From assembly GCF_003334405.1 (NCBI RefSeq), contig NZ_QOWM01000008.1: a stretch of 64,000 bases of DNA. The stretch is one strand, 5' to 3'. This DNA is from Escherichia coli (GTDB lineage: Bacteria; Pseudomonadota; Gammaproteobacteria; Enterobacterales; Enterobacteriaceae). Shown piece after piece: positions 1 to 55,334 of the stretch. Below the pieces are notes generated by a model, which saw only the letters and a program-made list of their open reading frames with translations, was not told the DNA's origin and ran no database searches. Position 1 is the stretch's first letter. Every line of letters starts with the position of its first letter. The translations under genes and the position numbers were made by a program.

Positions 1-330
1 CGTGCGGGGGTTTTCTCTTTCCAGCAACCAATGCCACCAGGGATAAAGCCCCCGCAACATTGCGCCTCACCGGATAACGCCGGCTTGGTGTGGATACTAC
101 GACTCAATTCATCTTCACTTCATCCCTGAAATGTTTGCAATGAAGAGTGCATTCCGGTTTTTCAACAGCTGTTACAGTCATTTCATGAGTGCTCTGGATG
201 AGGCTTCCAGCTCGGGTTGCCAATATTTACTTGTGGAAGTGATAAAGACAAAAATGGCCGCAGGCTGTTACCCCTGCGGCCGGTTTCGGGCGCATATTGC
301 CATCACGGCAGCCTGACGCCCGTTTTCACC

Positions 331-438
331 TTACTTCCGGTTACGCCACCAGCTGACAATCGCTGCGGTAATAATTCCCGCCAGGATCGGTGCTGCCAGG
401 TCGTGCCAGAAAATCATGGCAAACTGCGCGAGCGTCAT
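331..438 (-). CDS. ldrB: Ldr-family small hydrophobic toxin, 35 aa (MTLAQFAMIFWHDLAAPILAGIITAAIVSWWRNRK)
   Basis: Hand translation of the reverse complement gives ATG...TAA, 35 codons, matching the Ldr toxin family; too short for the ORF track. Symbol assigned by position (second-to-last copy before chaA) and is tentative. Confidence 0.8.
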   Translation of the reverse strand: MTLAQFAMIFWHDLAAPILAGIITAAIVSWWRNRK

Positions 439-485
439 ATAGCCGCCTTGTTGTAATGACAACATTTTGCGGCTATTCTTGAAGT

Positions 486-552
486 GTCTGGTTTCAAGAT
501 TAGCCCCCGTTCTGTTGTCAGGTTTTACCTCTCAACGTGCGGGGGTTTTCTC
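486..552 (+). ncRNA. rdl: Rdl-like cis-antisense RNA (antitoxin) ending in an intrinsic terminator
   Basis: Plus-strand segment antisense to the ldr 5' leader, ending in CCCCCG...CGGGGG hairpin followed by TTTTCTCTTT; position agrees with known rdl placement about 50-120 bp beyond the ldr start. Boundaries approximate. An identical 3' end lies at 1-20. Confidence 0.5.
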
Positions 553-629
553 TTTCCAGCAACCAATGCCACCAGGGATAAAGCCCCCGCAACATTGCGC
601 CTCACCGGATAATTCCGGCTTGGTGTGGA

Positions 630-638
630 TACTACGTC
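630..638. repeat. IS10 target-site duplication, left copy (TACTACGTC)
   Basis: 9-bp direct repeat immediately flanking the IS10 outside end; identical 9-mer at 1968-1976. Confidence 0.9.
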
Positions 639-1967
639 CTGATGAATCCCCTAATGATTTTTATCAAAATCATTAAGTTAAGGTAGATACACATCTTGTC
701 ATATGATCAAATGGTTTCGCCAAAAATCAATAATCAGACAACAAAATGTGCGAACTCGATATTTTACACGACTCTCTTTACCAATTCTGCCCCGAATTAC
801 ACTTAAAACGACTCAACAGCTTAACGTTGGCTTGCCACGCCTTACTTGACTGTAAAACTCTCACTCTTACCGAACTTGGCCGTAACCTGCCAACCAAAGC
901 GAGAACAAAACATAACATCAAACGAATCGACCGATTGTTAGGTAATCGTCACCTCCACAAAGAGCGACTCGCTGTATACCGTTGGCATGCTAGCTTTATC
1001 TGTTCGGGCAATACGATGCCCATTGTACTTGTTGACTGGTCTGATATCCGTGAGCAAAAACGGCTTATGGTATTGCGAGCTTCAGTCGCACTACACGGTC
1101 GTTCTGTTACTCTTTATGAGAAAGCGTTCCCGCTTTCAGAGCAATGTTCAAAGAAAGCTCATGACCAATTTCTAGCCGACCTTGCGAGCATTCTACCGAG
1201 TAACACCACACCGCTCATTGTCAGTGATGCTGGCTTTAAAGTGCCATGGTATAAATCCGTTGAGAAGCTGGGTTGGTACTGGTTAAGTCGAGTAAGAGGA
1301 AAAGTACAATATGCAGACCTAGGAGCGGAAAACTGGAAACCTATCAGCAACTTACATGATATGTCATCTAGTCACTCAAAGACTTTAGGCTATAAGAGGC
1401 TGACTAAAAGCAATCCAATCTCATGCCAAATTCTATTGTATAAATCTCGCTCTAAAGGCCGAAAAAATCAGCGCTCGACACGGACTCATTGTCACCACCC
1501 GTCACCTAAAATCTACTCAGCGTCGGCAAAGGAGCCATGGATTCTAGCAACTAACTTACCTGTTGAAATTCGAACACCCAAACAACTTGTTAATATCTAT
1601 TCGAAGCGAATGCAGATTGAAGAAACCTTCCGAGACTTGAAAAGTCCTGCCTACGGACTAGGCCTACGCCATAGCCGAACGAGCAGCTCAGAGCGTTTTG
1701 ATATCATGCTGCTAATCGCCCTGATGCTTCAACTAACATGTTGGCTTGCGGGCGTTCATGCTCAGAAACAAGGTTGGGACAAGCACTTCCAGGCTAACAC
1801 AGTCAGAAATCGAAACGTACTCTCAACAGTTCGCTTAGGCATGGAAGTTTTGCGGCATTCTGGCTACACAATAACAAGGGAAGACTCACTCGTGGCTGCA
1901 ACCCTGCTTACTCAAAATCTATTCACACATGGTTACGTTTTGGGGAAATTATGAGGGGATCTCTCAG
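639..1967 (+). mobile_element. IS10: IS10 insertion sequence, complete, 1329 bp
   Basis: Outside end CTGATGAATCCCCTAATGATTTT at 639; inside end ...GAAATTATGAGGGGATCTCTCAG at 1945-1967; imperfect terminal inverted repeats; single 402-aa transposase ORF; 9-bp TSD. GATC sites at about 705 and 1957. Confidence 0.95.
746..1954 (+). CDS. IS10 transposase (IS4 family), 402 aa
   Basis: ORF track 746..1954; protein begins MCELDILHDSLYQFCPELHLKRL, matching the Tn10/IS10 transposase; start is 108 bp from the outside end as expected. Confidence 0.95.
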   Translation: MCELDILHDSLYQFCPELHLKRLNSLTLACHALLDCKTLTLTELGRNLPTKARTKHNIKRIDRLLGNRHLHKERLAVYRWHASFICSGNTMPIVLVDWSDIREQKRLMVLRASVALHGRSVTLYEKAFPLSEQCSKKAHDQFLADLASILPSNTTPLIVSDAGFKVPWYKSVEKLGWYWLSRVRGKVQYADLGAENWKPISNLHDMSSSHSKTLGYKRLTKSNPISCQILLYKSRSKGRKNQRSTRTHCHHPSPKIYSASAKEPWILATNLPVEIRTPKQLVNIYSKRMQIEETFRDLKSPAYGLGLRHSRTSSSERFDIMLLIALMLQLTCWLAGVHAQKQGWDKHFQANTVRNRNVLSTVRLGMEVLRHSGYTITREDSLVAATLLTQNLFTHGYVLGKL

Positions 1968-1976
1968 TACTACGTC
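1968..1976. repeat. IS10 target-site duplication, right copy (TACTACGTC)
   Basis: Identical 9-mer to 630-638, directly after the IS10 inside end. Confidence 0.9.
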
Positions 1977-2203
1977 TCAATTCATCTTCACTTCATCCCT
2001 GAAATGTTTGCAATAAAGAGTACATTCCGGCTTTTCAACAGCTGTTGCAGTCGTTTCATGAGTGCTCTGGATGATGCTTCCAGCTCGGGTTGCCAATATT
2101 TACTTGTGGAAGAGATAAAGACAAAAATGGCCGCAGGCTGTTACCCCTGCGGCCGGTTTCGGGCGCATATTGCCATCACGGCAGCCTGACGCCCGTTTTC
2201 ACC

Positions 2204-2311
2204 TTACTTCCGGTTACGCCACCAGCTGACAATCGCTGCGGTAATAATTCCCGCCAGGATCGGTGCTGCCAGGTCGTGCCAGAAAATCATGGCAAACTGC
2301 GCGAGCGTCAT
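2204..2311 (-). CDS. ldrC: Ldr-family small hydrophobic toxin, 35 aa, identical to the copy at 331..438
   Basis: Same 108-nt sequence as 331..438; last LDR copy before chaA. Symbol by position, tentative. Confidence 0.8.
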   Translation of the reverse strand: MTLAQFAMIFWHDLAAPILAGIITAAIVSWWRNRK

Positions 2312-2358
2312 ATAGCCGCCTTGTTGTAATGACAACATTTTGCGGCTATTCTTGAAGT

Positions 2359-2425
2359 GTCTGGTTTCAAGATTAGCCCCCGTTTTGTTGTCAGGTTTTA
2401 CCTCTCAACGTGCGGGGGTTTTCTC
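2359..2425 (+). ncRNA. rdl: Rdl-like cis-antisense RNA (antitoxin)
   Basis: Same sequence as 486-552 with one T/C difference; hairpin plus U-tract terminator. Boundaries approximate. Confidence 0.5.
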
Positions 2426-2714
2426 TTTCCAGCAACCAATGCCACCAGGGATAAAGCCCCGCAACATTGCGCCTCACCGGATAACGCCGGCTTGGTGTGG
2501 ATACTACGTCGCAATTCATCTTCACTTCATCCCTGAAATGTTTGCAATGAAGAGTACATTCCGGCTTTTCAACAGCTGTTGCAGTGGTTTCGTGCAGGGT
2601 GTGGTACAGGCTCGCAATTCTGATTAACGACCTGTCCAGGTAGTATGAAGAAATACAATAAGCAGGAATTTATATTATCTCCCCCGATTACCGTCATCGG
2701 AGGAGATATAACTG

Positions 2715-3815
2715 TCAGGCAAATATCGTCATCAAATAGGCGGCAAACAGTGCCAGATGCGCTGCGCCATTGAGCACGTTAGTACGTCCGGTGGAGAAGG
2801 AGATATGGCACAGCACTAAAGAGGCCACCATCACCACCATTTCTGGCGCACCAAGTGCAAACTGCAATTCGTTACCCGTCATAAAGGCAATTAGCGTGAC
2901 GACAGGTACGGTAAGCGAAATGGTTGCTAACACTGAACCAAAGAACAGATTCATCGCGCGCTGAACCTGGTTGTTCAACACTGCTTTTAATGCACCTAAA
3001 CCTTCCGGCGACAGAATCAACAGTGCCACCAGGAAGCCAGTAAAGGCGACAGGGGCATTCATGCTGTCGAGCAATGTCTCCAGCGAGCTGGCGTTCATTT
3101 TGGTCACCGCAATAACGGCAATCAGATGGATAATCAACCAGATAGCATGCCACAGGCTGCTATGGGCAGACGGTTTACCGTGATGCGGGTCGTCATCATC
3201 ACTGTCATCTTCGTGCTCGTAGACAAACAAACTTTGATGCGTTTTGGTCTGGATCAGCAAAAATACGCCATACATTGCCGCAGAAATTAATGCTACCAGT
3301 AACGCCTGACCGGTTGAAAAATTCGCCGCAGGCAGAGCCATTGGAAATACCAGTACGATTATCGCCAGGGGGAACAGCGCAATTAAATACTGCTTGATAC
3401 CAAACAGATTCATATATTGGGTGGCAAACTTACGACCGCCCAACAATAATGAAAAGCCAACCAGCCCACCGGTAACAATCATAATGATTGAATAGAGCGT
3501 ATCACGCATTAGCGTTGGCGCGGCGTCGCCGGTTGCCATTAAAGCTGAAATCAAACTGACTTCAAGAATAACCACTGAAAGGCTAAGAATAAGCGAACCG
3601 TAAGGTTCTCCCAGGCGATGGGCTAATACGTCCGCATGACGGACAACACTAAAGGCGCTACTTAAAATACCAATAAGCGCAAGAAGATTGATGGCAATGA
3701 CCACTGGTAGTGTCTGGCTGCTTCCCCACAGGAACAGCACTACCAGCGCCAGAACCGGGAAAATAAGCGAAGTCTCCTTGTGGCGGGTTTTTACCGCCTC
3801 TTGAGCATTTGACAT
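2715..3815 (-). CDS. chaA: Ca2+/H+ (Na+/H+) antiporter ChaA, 366 aa
   Basis: ORF track 2715..3902; start trimmed to internal ATG (MSNAQEAVKTRH...) to match known ChaA length; multi-pass membrane protein with acidic loop. Confidence 0.9.
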   Translation of the reverse strand: MSNAQEAVKTRHKETSLIFPVLALVVLFLWGSSQTLPVVIAINLLALIGILSSAFSVVRHADVLAHRLGEPYGSLILSLSVVILEVSLISALMATGDAAPTLMRDTLYSIIMIVTGGLVGFSLLLGGRKFATQYMNLFGIKQYLIALFPLAIIVLVFPMALPAANFSTGQALLVALISAAMYGVFLLIQTKTHQSLFVYEHEDDSDDDDPHHGKPSAHSSLWHAIWLIIHLIAVIAVTKMNASSLETLLDSMNAPVAFTGFLVALLILSPEGLGALKAVLNNQVQRAMNLFFGSVLATISLTVPVVTLIAFMTGNELQFALGAPEMVVMVASLVLCHISFSTGRTNVLNGAAHLALFAAYLMTIFA

Positions 3816-18674: not shown

Positions 18675-19410
<736 letters not shown>

Positions 19411-50377: not shown

Positions 50378-51973
50378 TTACCCTCGTGCCGCCAGTGCGG
50401 TGACTCTGTCGTAAGCGGAACCACTGCGCAGTACCTCAAGAACGGTTTGCGCATTGGCTTGCAGATCTTCATGGCCATGCAGGCGCATTAACATGGCGAC
50501 GTTCGCAGCGACGGCTGCTTCATGGGCGGCGTCGCCTTTACCTTGTAACAAACGTGTTAAAATGTCACGGTTTTCTTCCGGTGTTCCGCCTGCCAGTTGC
50601 TCCTGGTGGTAGGGTGTCAGGCCAAAGTCTTCTGCGGTGAGCTGATAGCTTTTAATTTCGCCGTCATGCAGTTCGGCAACGATTGTCGGCGCGTGTAATG
50701 AAACTTCATCCATCCCGCCGCTGTGCACCACCGCCGCGCGTTGATACCCCAGCACGCGCAAGGTTTCGGCAATCGGCAGCACCAGTTCCGGACTATAAAC
50801 ACCAATTAACGCCAGCGGCGGATGCGCCGGGTTAATCAATGGCCCCAGCACATTGAACAGGGTGCGGGTTTTCAGTTGCTGGCGAACCGGCATCGCGTGG
50901 CGGAATCCGGTGTGATACTTCGGCGCAAAGAGGAAACATACACCTAACTCATCCAGCGCCTGGCGCGATTTATCGGCGTTCATATCAAGATTAATACCGA
51001 ACGCCGCCAGCAGATCGGACGAACCAGATTTACTGGAGACGCTACGGTTGCCGTGTTTCGCCACTTTCAGCCCACAGGCCGCGGCGACAAACGCACTGGC
51101 GGTAGAAATATTGATACTGTTGCTGCCGTCACCGCCAGTACCGACGATATCAGCAAACAGATAATCCGGGCGCGGGAACGGCGCTGCGTTTTCCAGTAGC
51201 GCGGTTGCTGCCCCGGCGATCTCGTTCGGGTGCTCACCGCGAATTTTCATGCTCACCAGCGCCGCCGCCAGTTGTTCCGGCTTCAGCTCGCCACGCACCA
51301 CCGCTGAAAACAGCTGGTGGCTTTCTTGTTGGCTAAGCGTCTGCGCCTGATACAGTTTTTCCAGAATCGGTTGCAGCGTGTTGGCTGGCTCTAGTTTCTG
51401 CTGCGCCCAGGCCAGCGTTTGTTCCAGCAGGCGAGCGCCCTGGGTGGTGAGAATGGATTCCGGATGGAACTGGAATCCACAAACGCGATCCGCATCGTGA
51501 CGTACTGCCATCACCATGCCATTAAAATGGGCGTTGATGGTTAAACCGGCCGGAATGTTACTGCCAACCAGCGAGTGATAACGCGCCACCGGCAGCGGGT
51601 TTGTTAATCCGGCAAACATCGCCTGACCGTCATGTTCAATGCTGGAGGCTTTACCGTGGAGAATTTCGCCCGCCTGACCGACATAGCCCCCGTAAGCTTC
51701 GACAATCGCCTGATGTCCGAGGCAAATGCCAATAATGGGCAGCTTGCCACGCAAGCGGGTGAGGAGTTCCGGCATACAACCGGCTTCGCTCGGCACACCG
51801 GGGCCAGGAGAAAGCATCAGCACCGGATTGCTCATGGTCGCCAGGCGTTCAATTAAGGTTTGCGCCGGAATATGGTTGCGGTAAATCACCACGTTATGCC
51901 CATTGCTGCGCAACTGATCTGCCAGGTTGTACGTAAAAGAGTCGATATTATCGAGCAGCAGAATGTCAGCCAT
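50378..51973 (-). CDS. trpD: Bifunctional anthranilate synthase glutamine amidotransferase / anthranilate phosphoribosyltransferase, 531 aa
   Basis: ORF track. Confidence 0.97.
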
Positions 51974-53535
51974 CAGAAAGTCTCCTGTGCATGATGCGCG
52001 GTGGCAATAGCGCGCAGTACAGCGCGGGCTTTGTTACGGGTTTCGTCGGCTTCCGACTGCGGAACAGAATCAAGGACTACACCAGCACCCGCTTGCACGG
52101 TGGCGATACCGTTTTCCACCAGCGCCGAGCGGATCACAATGCAGGTGTCGAGATCGCCATGCGCGGTGAAATAACCTACCGCGCCGCCGTAGCTGCCGCG
52201 GCGACGACCTTCCGCCTCGGCAATTAACTGCATAGCGCGTACTTTCGGCGCACCGCTTAACGTCCCCATATTCATACAGGCGCGATAAGCGTGCAGGGCG
52301 TCAAGATCGTGACGCAGTTCGCCGACTACGCGAGAGACGAGGTGCATCACATAGGAATAACGGTCAACTTTGGTGAGATCGGCGACGTAGCGGCTGCCGG
52401 GGGTGCAAATGCGTGCCAGATCATTACGGGCGAGATCAACCAGCATCAGATGTTCAGACAGCTCTTTATGATCGGTACGCATTTCCAGTTCAATACGGCT
52501 GTCGAGATCTCTGTCCAGTGAACCATCGGCGCGACGACCGCGTGGGCGTGTTCCGGCAATCGGGTAGATCTCAATCTGGCGGCTGGTGGCATCATACTTG
52601 AGCGAGCTTTCCGGCGACGCGCCAAATAGGGTGAAATCATTATCCTGCATAAAAAACATGTACGGGCTGGGATTACTCTTTTTCAGCACGTAATAGGCCG
52701 CCAGCGGTGACGGGCAGGGCAGAGAGAAACGGCGAGATGGCACCACCTGGAAAATTTCTCCAGCGCGAATCGCTTTTTGCAACAAACGCACTACGCCACC
52801 GAACTCTTCATCGCTCTGATTACATTCACAACGCATATGCGGCACGGAAACCACTGGCAGCGGCGGCGCGGCTTCGGTCAGTTGCTGACGTAGTTCGTTC
52901 AGGCGAGCAGTGAGACGTTGTTTTTCTTCTTCATTCGGAGCAAACAGGCTGGCCTGAATACGGGTGCTTTTTTTCTGATGGTCAATCACCATCAGCGTTT
53001 CAGCGAGATAAAAACAGAAATCAGGGCAGTTATTTTCCGCTGACAGTTGCGGTAAATCTTCAAATCCCGCCACAAGGTCATAAGAGAACAGGCCGCCGAA
53101 GAACATGGCTTCTCGTTCTTCCTTCGGTACATTCAACAGATTCTGCAATAAACGGAAAGCGTCAAAAACCGAAAGGGAGCATAAGCGGGCGTCTTCATCC
53201 AGCAGTGGACTGACAGGGGGGAAGCGCAGCACACGGCAGTTTGGTGATTGTTCACTTTCCACACCCGCAGGCAGGGCGTTATCCAGTAGTGCCAGCAGGG
53301 CTTCGCCGTTGCCGGAAAGTGCCTGGATTGTGACAGTGTCACCTAAAGCTGTAATGCGCAGCGCACTGTCTACCAGCAGCAGGCTTTTTAAATCATCTTT
53401 GCTGTCGATATCTGCGGATTCCAGCAGCAGCGTTGCCGGACGATCCCCACACAACTGGTGAAAAAGCGCGGTGGGATTGTCGCGATAAGCGCCTTCGCAG
53501 GTTAGCAGTTCGAGAGTCGGTTTTTGTGTTTGCAT
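51973..53535 (-). CDS. trpE: Anthranilate synthase component I, 520 aa
   Basis: ORF track; 1-nt overlap with trpD. Confidence 0.97.
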
Positions 53536-53556
53536 TGTTATTCTCTAATTTTGTTC

Positions 53557-53584
53557 AAAAAAAAGCCCGCTCATTAGGCGGGCT
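53557..53584 (-). terminator. trp attenuator (3:4 terminator hairpin plus U-tract)
   Basis: Minus strand reads AGCCCGCCTAATGAGCGGGCTTTTTTTT between trpL and trpE. Confidence 0.9.
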
Positions 53585-53626
53585 GGGTATCTGATTGCTT
53601 TACGCATGGTGAATACACTGCCCGTT

Positions 53627-53671
53627 TCAGGAAGTGCGCCACCAACCTTTCAGTACGAAAATTGCTTTCAT
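53627..53671 (-). CDS. trpL: trp operon leader peptide, 14 aa ([14 protein letters not shown])
   Basis: Hand translation: ATG AAA GCA ATT TTC GTA CTG AAA GGT TGG TGG CGC ACT TCC TGA with tandem Trp codons. Confidence 0.9.
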
Positions 53672-53694
53672 TGTCGATACCCTTTTTACGTGAA

Positions 53695-53735
53695 CTTGCG
53701 TACTAGTTAACTAGTTCGATGATTAATTGTCAACA
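53695..53735 (-). promoter_or_regulatory. trp promoter and TrpR operator
   Basis: TTGACA -35 (complement at about 53728-53733) and ACTAGTTAACTAGT operator palindrome overlapping the -10. Confidence 0.85.
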
Positions 53736-53808
53736 GCTCATTTCAGAATATTTGCCAGAACCGTTATGATGTCGGCGCAAAAAACATTATCCAGAACGGG
53801 AGTGCGCC

Positions 53809-54690
53809 TTGAGCGACACGAATTATGCAGTGATTTACGACCTGCACAGCCATACCACAGCTTCCGATGGCTGCCTGACGCCAGAAGCATTGGTGCACCG
53901 TGCAGTCGAGATGCGCGTCGGCACCCTGGCGATCACCGACCATGACACCACAGCTGCAATCGCGCCAGCAAGAGAGGAAATTTCACGTTCGGGACTGGCG
54001 TTGAATCTTATTCCCGGCGTGGAAATTTCCACGGTCTGGGAAAATCATGAAATTCATATTGTCGGGCTGAATATTGATATTACTCATCCGCTAATGTGTG
54101 AGTTCCTCGCGCAGCAGACAGAACGGCGCAATCAGCGGGCGCAGCTGATTGCCGAAAGACTTGAAAAAGCGCAAATACCTGGGGCGCTGGAAGGCGCACA
54201 ACGACTGGCGCAGGGCGGCGCAGTGACGCGCGGTCATTTTGCGCGTTTCCTTGTTGAGTGCGGCAAAGCCAGTTCAATGGCGGATGTCTTTAAAAAGTAT
54301 CTGGCGCGCGGGAAAACCGGATACGTTCCGCCACAGTGGTGTACAATAGAACAAGCTATTGATGTCATTCATCATTCTGGCGGTAAGGCGGTGCTAGCTC
54401 ATCCTGGGCGGTACAATCTTAGTGCTAAATGGCTGAAAAGATTGGTTGCGCATTTTGCCGAACACCACGGTGACGCGATGGAAGTCGCGCAGTGCCAGCA
54501 ATCGCCCAATGAACGTACCCAGCTGGCGGCCCTTGCGCGTCAGCATCATTTATGGGCATCACAAGGATCTGATTTTCATCAGCCATGCCCGTGGATCGAA
54601 CTGGGTCGTAAACTCTGGCTGCCCGCAGGCGTTGAAGGCGTCTGGCAGCTATGGGAACAGCCGCAGAACACCACAGAGAGGGAATTATGA
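53809..54690 (+). CDS. yciV: PHP-domain 5'-3' exoribonuclease YciV (Rnm/TrpH), 293 aa
   Basis: ORF track; HSHT...DG PHP motif near N-terminus. Confidence 0.9.
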   Translation: MSDTNYAVIYDLHSHTTASDGCLTPEALVHRAVEMRVGTLAITDHDTTAAIAPAREEISRSGLALNLIPGVEISTVWENHEIHIVGLNIDITHPLMCEFLAQQTERRNQRAQLIAERLEKAQIPGALEGAQRLAQGGAVTRGHFARFLVECGKASSMADVFKKYLARGKTGYVPPQWCTIEQAIDVIHHSGGKAVLAHPGRYNLSAKWLKRLVAHFAEHHGDAMEVAQCQQSPNERTQLAALARQHHLWASQGSDFHQPCPWIELGRKLWLPAGVEGVWQLWEQPQNTTEREL

Positions 54691-55307
54691 GCCAGTTTTT
54701 TTATATTCATCCTGATAACCCACAGCAACGTCTGATCAACCAGGCGGTGGAGATCGTGCGTAAAGGCGGGGTGATTGTTTATCCAACTGATTCCGGCTAT
54801 GCGCTCGGCTGTAAAATTGAAGATAAAAACGCGATGGAGCGTATTTGTCGTATTCGCCAGCTGCCGGACGGTCACAACTTTACCCTGATGTGTCGCGATC
54901 TTTCTGAACTCTCGACCTATTCATTTGTTGATAACGTTGCGTTTCGTTTAATGAAAAACAACACGCCGGGCAACTATACCTTCATCCTGAAGGGGACGAA
55001 GGAAGTGCCACGCCGTCTGTTGCAGGAAAAACGCAAAACCATCGGTATGCGTGTGCCTTCTAACCCTATCGCTCAGGCGTTACTTGAAGCATTGGGCGAA
55101 CCGATGCTTTCCACTTCGCTAATGCTGCCAGGCAGCGAATTTACCGAATCGGACCCGGAAGAAATTAAAGATCGTCTGGAAAAACAGGTAGATTTGATTA
55201 TTCACGGCGGCTATCTCGGGCAGAAACCGACAACGGTTATTGATCTTACCGATGATACGCCGGTCGTGGTGCGTGAAGGCGTAGGTGATGTGAAGCCTTT
55301 CTTATAA
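54687..55307 (+). CDS. yciO: YrdC/Sua5-family protein YciO, 206 aa
   Basis: ORF track 54651..55307 trimmed to MSQFFYIHPDNPQQRL; ATGA overlap with yciV stop. Confidence 0.85.
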   Translation: MSQFFYIHPDNPQQRLINQAVEIVRKGGVIVYPTDSGYALGCKIEDKNAMERICRIRQLPDGHNFTLMCRDLSELSTYSFVDNVAFRLMKNNTPGNYTFILKGTKEVPRRLLQEKRKTIGMRVPSNPIAQALLEALGEPMLSTSLMLPGSEFTESDPEEIKDRLEKQVDLIIHGGYLGQKPTTVIDLTDDTPVVVREGVGDVKPFL

Positions 55308-55334
55308 CAAATTGCGTTCCACGGATGGAAGACT

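Follow-up and report, generated by a model that had tools for sequence, protein, structure and literature searches.

The DNA between trpE and the divergent gene rnm raises the question of whether this strain carries the intact tryptophan control region of the Escherichia coli chromosome and, if so, by which layers that region would govern the trp operon. The stretch analyzed here, referred to as the window, is 64,000 nt long. Read from its sequence, the whole trp regulatory region lies within positions 53536–53760 on the minus strand, a strand assignment that the initial annotation did not give (Table 1). This region is almost certainly native to the E. coli chromosome, where it controls the trpLEDCBA operon by combining repression with ribosome-mediated attenuation; no result obtained here contradicts this reading. 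Because the sequence is identical to the one used to establish the mechanism, the established two-layer control is the best explanation of its organization.

Table 1. Elements of the trp control region, with window coordinates. Positions with a sign are relative to the transcription start.
Feature	Position	Strand	Basis
trp promoter −35 hexamer TTGACA	53728–53733	−	Read from sequence; same in MG1655
TrpR operator CGAACTAGTTAACTAGTACG, −21 to −2, 20-bp palindrome	53699–53718	−	Inverted-repeat search; identical to MG1655
trp promoter −10 hexamer TTAACT, within the operator	53705–53710	−	Read from sequence
Transcription start +1, A of AAGUUCACG	53697	−	Placed by established knowledge
trpL Shine-Dalgarno region AAGGGU, +14 to +19	53679–53684	−	Read from sequence
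trpL leader peptide gene, 14 codons and stop	53627–53671	−	Sequence and mini-ORF scan
Rfam RF00513 (Trp_leader) match	53557–53650	−	Covariance model
Tandem Trp codons UGG UGG, +54 to +59, sensing site	53639–53644	−	Sequence
1:2 hairpin, +54–70 with +74–91, pause/anti-antiterminator	53607–53644	−	Minimum-energy fold of free leader
2:3 antiterminator, +74–86 with +107–119, core CGGGC/GCCCG	53579–53624	−	Constrained fold
3:4 intrinsic terminator (attenuator), stem +114–121/+126–134	53557–53584	−	Terminator scan, fold, Rfam structure
trpE, first structural gene	51973–53535	−	ORF list

The promoter is formed by a TTGACA hexamer, which we take to be the −35 element from established knowledge of the trp promoter, and by TTAACT, the two being separated by a 17-bp spacer. 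A sigma-70 consensus scan did not report this promoter, because TTAACT agrees with TATAAT at three of six positions and lacks the A that the scan requires at position 2. We therefore dismissed the scan result as an argument against the promoter, given that the known −10 hexamer fails the rule of the tool. The initial annotation had placed a TrpR operator palindrome in the region, and an inverted-repeat search located it at 53718–53699, where two 10-nt arms (53699–53708 and 53709–53718) adjoin without a spacer and are complementary at 9 of 10 pairs (90%). Eighteen of its 20 positions are symmetric. The sequence features of a TrpR-type operator are found here, namely a near-perfect palindrome, two CTAG cores and an overlap with the −10 region (53710–53705). 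The window contains a single copy of the 18-nt operator core, GAACTAGTTAACTAGTAC, compared with 0.01 expected from shuffled sequence. Transcription presumably begins at A53697, a position assigned from the known 162-nt leader ahead of the trpE AUG and the known placement of the trpL AUG at +27; both distances fit the sequence exactly.

Downstream of the start site, the leader contains a translatable ORF with a ribosome-binding site, a start and a stop, located 91 nt ahead of the trpE ATG. Its AUG (53671, +27) follows the GGG of the Shine-Dalgarno region by 8 nt, and its UGA occupies 53629–53627 (+69 to +71). The encoded peptide equals the product of MG1655 trpL (b1265), and trpL is annotated in every RefSeq match. 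The tandem Trp codons noted earlier are present at 53644–53639, within region 1, on the 5′ strand of the 1:2 helix (+54–59 paired with +86–91). The trpE ATG begins at 53535 (+163), 162 nt after +1. Hence every landmark occupies its textbook position (AUG +27, UGGUGG +54–59, UGA +69–71, U-tract +134–141 and trpE AUG +163).

RNA folding yielded the alternative 1:2, 2:3 and 3:4 structures that had been anticipated for this leader. The free RNA from +1 to +141 folds at −46.9 kcal/mol (z = −3.7 against 200 dinucleotide shuffles), with 1:2 and 3:4 both present. As an isolated segment, 1:2 folds at −17.8 kcal/mol, and the upper part of this hairpin also appears in the Rfam consensus structure. The 3:4 segment folds in isolation at −14.0 kcal/mol (z = −3.8). 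Its stem, AGCCCGC(C)/(G)GCGGGCT (53584–53564), comprises 7–8 bp with six G-C pairs and runs into exactly eight T residues (53564–53557, +134 to +141), the first of which also closes the stem. This G+C-rich stem followed by a U-tract lies ahead of the structural genes, as expected of an attenuator, and bears out the earlier claim of a terminator hairpin with an eight-residue U-tract. In the free-leader minimum-energy fold we also observed, on the minus strand, that GGGUAUC at +16–22 (53682–53676), in the trpL ribosome-binding region, pairs with GAUACCC at +107–113 (53591–53585). Once transcription has terminated, such pairing would conceal the region around the trpL start; a similar pairing is said to have been described in early studies by the Yanofsky laboratory.

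The three predicted pairings are mutually exclusive, since 2:3 and 3:4 share +114–119, and 1:2 and 2:3 share +74–86. When +1–70 was masked, to imitate stalling of the ribosome on the Trp codons, and the transcript was ended at +125, the minimum-energy structure became 2:3 (−15.6 kcal/mol), which recurred in the isolated-segment fold with z = −3.2. When +1–84 was masked, as by a ribosome at the stop codon, 3:4 alone remained. Equilibrium folding of the full +1–141 RNA with region 1 masked did not favor the antiterminator: 3:4 prevailed at −20.3 kcal/mol. As 3:4 is the equilibrium minimum despite the masking of region 1, the switch must be kinetic, that is, set by the order of synthesis. Co-transcriptional order is beyond the reach of equilibrium folding, and the truncated-transcript model alone yields 2:3. 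We accordingly rejected equilibrium folding by itself as proof of antitermination, given that the full-length RNA with region 1 masked keeps 3:4.

Several of these elements are unremarkable when counted singly. Palindromes of 20 bp that reach 9 or more of 10 pairs number six in the window, compared with about two in block shuffles, and ten distinct ATG mini-ORFs of 10–30 codons have in-frame tandem TGG, two of these ORFs being parts of Ldr toxin genes. The terminator scan returned one site, with 0.8 expected in shuffles. The operator palindrome and the Trp-Trp mini-ORF, each taken alone, are within chance, and these counts are what a reading of the region as a fortuitous juxtaposition of a palindrome, a Trp-Trp ORF and a hairpin with a T-run would draw on. 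What makes the case is therefore that the elements occur together and immediately precede trpE, along with the Rfam score and the exact agreement with the reference. The RF00513 covariance model matched at 93.1 bits against a gathering threshold of 41 (E = 2.3e-20), spanning model positions 1–100 of 100, and a gathering-threshold scan of the whole window returned 53650–53557 as its sole Trp_leader match. A 311-base query across the region found a match in 5,422 of 5,426 complete E. coli genomes, directly upstream of trpE, and the RefSeq annotation at the matched place reads 'Trp leader region', trpL, trpE and rnm. Together with 100% identity to the reference over 501 bases, the Rfam E-value and the conserved position refute the chance reading, whose probability is vanishingly small. 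A weak isrK match over the terminator (16.4 bits where the threshold is 50; E = 0.95) was discounted as fortuitous and attributed to the hairpin and U-tract.

The identity with K-12 extends well beyond the elements themselves. Window positions 53400–53900 (501 bases) are an exact substring of MG1655 (NC_000913.3), and the 13-kb interval bounded by yciE and btuR contains only three SNPs (53296, 55642 and 55886), none of them in the regulatory region. The nearest, 53296, lies 240 nt into trpE and is a synonymous CTC>CTG change in codon 80; the other two both fall within yciQ. Had the Trp codons or the 3:4 stem differed from the reference, the initial annotation would have been contradicted; the comparison disclosed no such change, so that its description of the elements as undisturbed and of the region as textbook stands on K-12 identity, RefSeq annotation and an Rfam score well over threshold. 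All six products of the trp operon are likewise unchanged from MG1655: TrpL, TrpE and TrpD at the protein level, and TrpC, TrpB and TrpA through identity of their genes at the DNA level. The further claim that the regulatory region is wild-type holds for the cis-acting sequence; its limit is that the genes for TrpR, tRNA-Trp and TrpS lie beyond the window.

trp promoter sequence is also found away from the trp locus. Positions 40052–40094 of NZ_CP045864.1, a 96-kb plasmid of the O157:H7 strain ATCC 43890, are a 43-nt exact copy of window positions 53759–53717, which make up the upstream half of the trp promoter and include the −35 hexamer and the start of the operator, with no annotated feature beneath the copy. 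A few other plasmids carry similar matches. The plasmid copy in NZ_CP045864.1 may be the remnant of an engineered promoter of the tac/trc type. Such exact 43-nt matches could be taken to suggest that the window itself contains an engineered trp-promoter cassette, from an expression vector or a tac/trc-type fragment, rather than the native locus. Such an origin is exceedingly improbable, because the 64 kb are colinear with MG1655, and the full leader is flanked by trpEDCBA downstream and rnm-yciO-yciQ upstream in native order; chromosomal colinearity rules out an engineered fragment.

Opposite the native trp promoter, the plus strand carries a sigma-70-like sequence, TTCAGA-17-TATGAT (53742–53770), 39 bp before the TTG start of rnm (yciV/trpH) at 53809. 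It is a weak consensus match, the one site reported by the scan, compared with 0.5 expected in shuffles, and it shares bases with the upstream portion of the trp promoter. One could imagine that the 111-bp divergent intergenic region (53698–53808) carries a promoter for rnm-yciO-yciQ and that TrpR on the operator, or RNA polymerase on the trp promoter, might couple rnm to tryptophan, an arrangement that we regard as very doubtful. If true, expression of the RNase gene rnm would be tied to tryptophan supply.

To place the window sequence within natural variation, we examined genomes matching the region. The ranking of matches was sampled at even intervals; of the 60 genomes listed, 32 are 100% identical to the window over 225 bases, so the window haplotype is the commonest among the 5,422 genomes. 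Alignment of six non-identical strains (042, HN68, FDAARGOS_144, E118, 97-3250 and 5264) defined the natural variants considered here. Strains 042 and HN68 have a tract of seven T in place of the eight at 53564–53557. FDAARGOS_144 and HN68 carry T>C at −16 (window 53713), in the left CTAG core of the operator, while C>T at −21 (53718) is found in FDAARGOS_144 and E118. Single further changes are G>A at −37 (53734) in 97-3250, A>G at +13 (53685) in 5264 and A>G at +123 (53575), in the terminator loop, in E118. The window has none of these changes, and all six strains share its architecture and trpL peptide. In the lineages concerned, the shortened tract and the T>C change in the CTAG core could affect repression or the basal level of readthrough. 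It is because other E. coli strains vary in this region that 'undisturbed' is a meaningful statement about the present one.

Yanofsky's work established tryptophan-dependent termination and readthrough on the K-12 sequence. In the window the cis elements are all present, correctly spaced and identical to that experimentally studied sequence; from established knowledge we infer TrpR binding, pausing after 1:2, ribosome stalling and the outcome in vivo. At the first layer, tryptophan-bound TrpR dimers would occupy the palindromic operator over the −10 hexamer and thereby block initiation. At the second, RNA polymerase would pause past the 1:2 hairpin until a ribosome begins to translate trpL. 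With charged tRNA-Trp plentiful, the ribosome would pass the UGG codons, reach the UGA and cover region 2, which would leave the G+C-rich 3:4 hairpin and its eight U to terminate transcription at about +140. When charged tRNA-Trp is in short supply, the ribosome would stall on the UGG codons and cover region 1, so that 2:3 would pair before region 4 is made, block the terminator and permit readthrough into trpE. If translation were absent, 1:2 and 3:4 would both be expected to form and transcription to terminate. This two-layer mechanism is summarized in PMC3831192 and PMC12612679, and the tryptophan-dependent choice between termination and readthrough is established for the identical K-12 sequence (PMC3831192).

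The window is colinear with MG1655 at about 1.269–1.333 Mb and more than 99.9% identical to it, with about 34 SNPs in 64 kb. IS5 is absent between ychE and oppA (window about 31283–31286), where MG1655 has IS5U. In the tyrT/tyrV region (18676–19410, minus strand), three RtT units (RF00391, 133–138 bits) are interleaved with two tRNA-Tyr genes; MG1655 has one more 178-bp unit. Within the ldr/rdl LDR repeat cluster lies a complete 1329-bp element of the IS10 type (ISVsa5 family; 639–1967), an insertion that MG1655 does not have. It is flanked by a 9-bp target duplication, TACTACGTC (630–638 and 1968–1976), begins with CTGATGAATCCCC and ends with GGGGATCTCTCAG; its transposase frame is open for 406 codons, and Rfam reported an RNA-OUT match at 684–753 on the minus strand. 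No uninterrupted match across the IS10/ldr stretch was found among 5,426 complete genomes. A query spanning IS10 was at least 80% covered in two of these genomes, in each case as two joined pieces. We rejected the possibility that the window is K-12 itself on the grounds of the missing IS5 upstream of oppA, the extra IS10, the RtT unit fewer and the approximately 34 SNPs; judged by its DNA, the strain is a close relative of K-12, not K-12.

A further difference is located in yciQ (55335–57230, plus strand), which encodes a DUF2207 membrane protein. There, G>A at 55642 converts TGG to TAG (W103*, stop at 55641–55643), which probably inactivates the gene. Base 55642 is the only position within 53200–56000 at which E. 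coli C and strain 720632 depart from the window. Among the records examined, the stop is shared only with strain N61 (NZ_AP028880.1, from bovine mastitis milk, Japan), which is identical to the window over 53200–56000, stop included, and whose annotation lists the gene as a pseudogene with 'internal stop'. Neither of the two genomes covering the IS10 junction query is N61, and for that reason the window strain is probably a relative and not the N61 record itself.

This background bears on the possibility that the cis elements are intact but trp regulation is abnormal through an altered trans factor (TrpR, tRNA-Trp, TrpS, Rho/NusA or the rRNA modification by RsmB/RsmD). None of these genes is among those mapped to the window, and the candidates thus all lie outside it. 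Attenuation can be misregulated through trans factors when trpL is wild-type (PMC3831192). The strain also has at least one nonsense mutation (in yciQ), and a mobile element has inserted at another place in the window. We nevertheless consider abnormal regulation of this kind improbable: the strain differs from MG1655 by about 0.05% within the window. trpR and trpT are core genes that are seldom lost, and in K-12 we take trpR to lie far outside the region of the window.

A second proposal adds to the two-layer reading rather than competing with it. The terminated leader RNA of about 140 nt (rnTrpL), and possibly the 14-aa peptide as well, might also act in trans, which would make the locus a dual-function sRNA gene; we give this about an even chance. 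PMC12612679 reports trans action in E. coli K-12, citing Li et al. 2021 (RNA Biol.), and describes Hfq-dependent destabilization of dnaA mRNA by E. coli rnTrpL. By sequence comparison, the RNA from +1 to the attenuator (about 140 nt, to +141) is identical to that of K-12, and K-12 behavior would be expected to carry over. On the other side, the reported targets (dnaA, sanA and mhpC) are outside the window, and the activity is already published and adds no novelty.

The trp control region of this strain is therefore already known, ordinary and unaltered. It touches no open question; its value is that of an annotation check, and through it the window can be assigned to the trp-tonB part of an E. 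coli chromosome. The trp operon of the strain has the reference cis-regulatory sequence and the reference enzymes, and attenuator deletions, operator-constitutive changes and a shortened U-tract are ruled out as the source of any tryptophan phenotype.

Among known systems, the closest is the trp promoter/operator-trpL-attenuator of E. coli K-12 MG1655 (NC_000913.3, about 1322947–1323171), with which positions 53536–53760 agree at every base and which has the same neighbors, trpE downstream and rnm divergent upstream. The window also shares the conserved upper 1:2 stem and the 3:4 terminator with the wider RF00513 family of enterobacterial trp leaders (for example, those of Salmonella and Serratia). 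Relative to the family consensus it has 5-nt and 1-nt deletions, both in unpaired segments, which is the normal E. coli form. The his, phe, thr, leu and ilvGMEDA leaders of E. coli likewise couple a short ORF rich in cognate codons to alternative antiterminator and terminator hairpins; they use other regulatory codons, often more of them (for example, seven His), and most have no repressor/operator layer like TrpR. The trp leaders of Bacillus subtilis and Sinorhizobium meliloti resemble that of the window in making a tryptophan-responsive choice between antiterminator and terminator. In B. subtilis, tryptophan is sensed by the TRAP protein on (G/U)AG repeats and not by a translating ribosome. 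The S. meliloti leader combines a trpL uORF with a released trans-acting RNA; that species is without TrpR, and its rnTrpL is 110 nt long and has different targets (PMC12612679).
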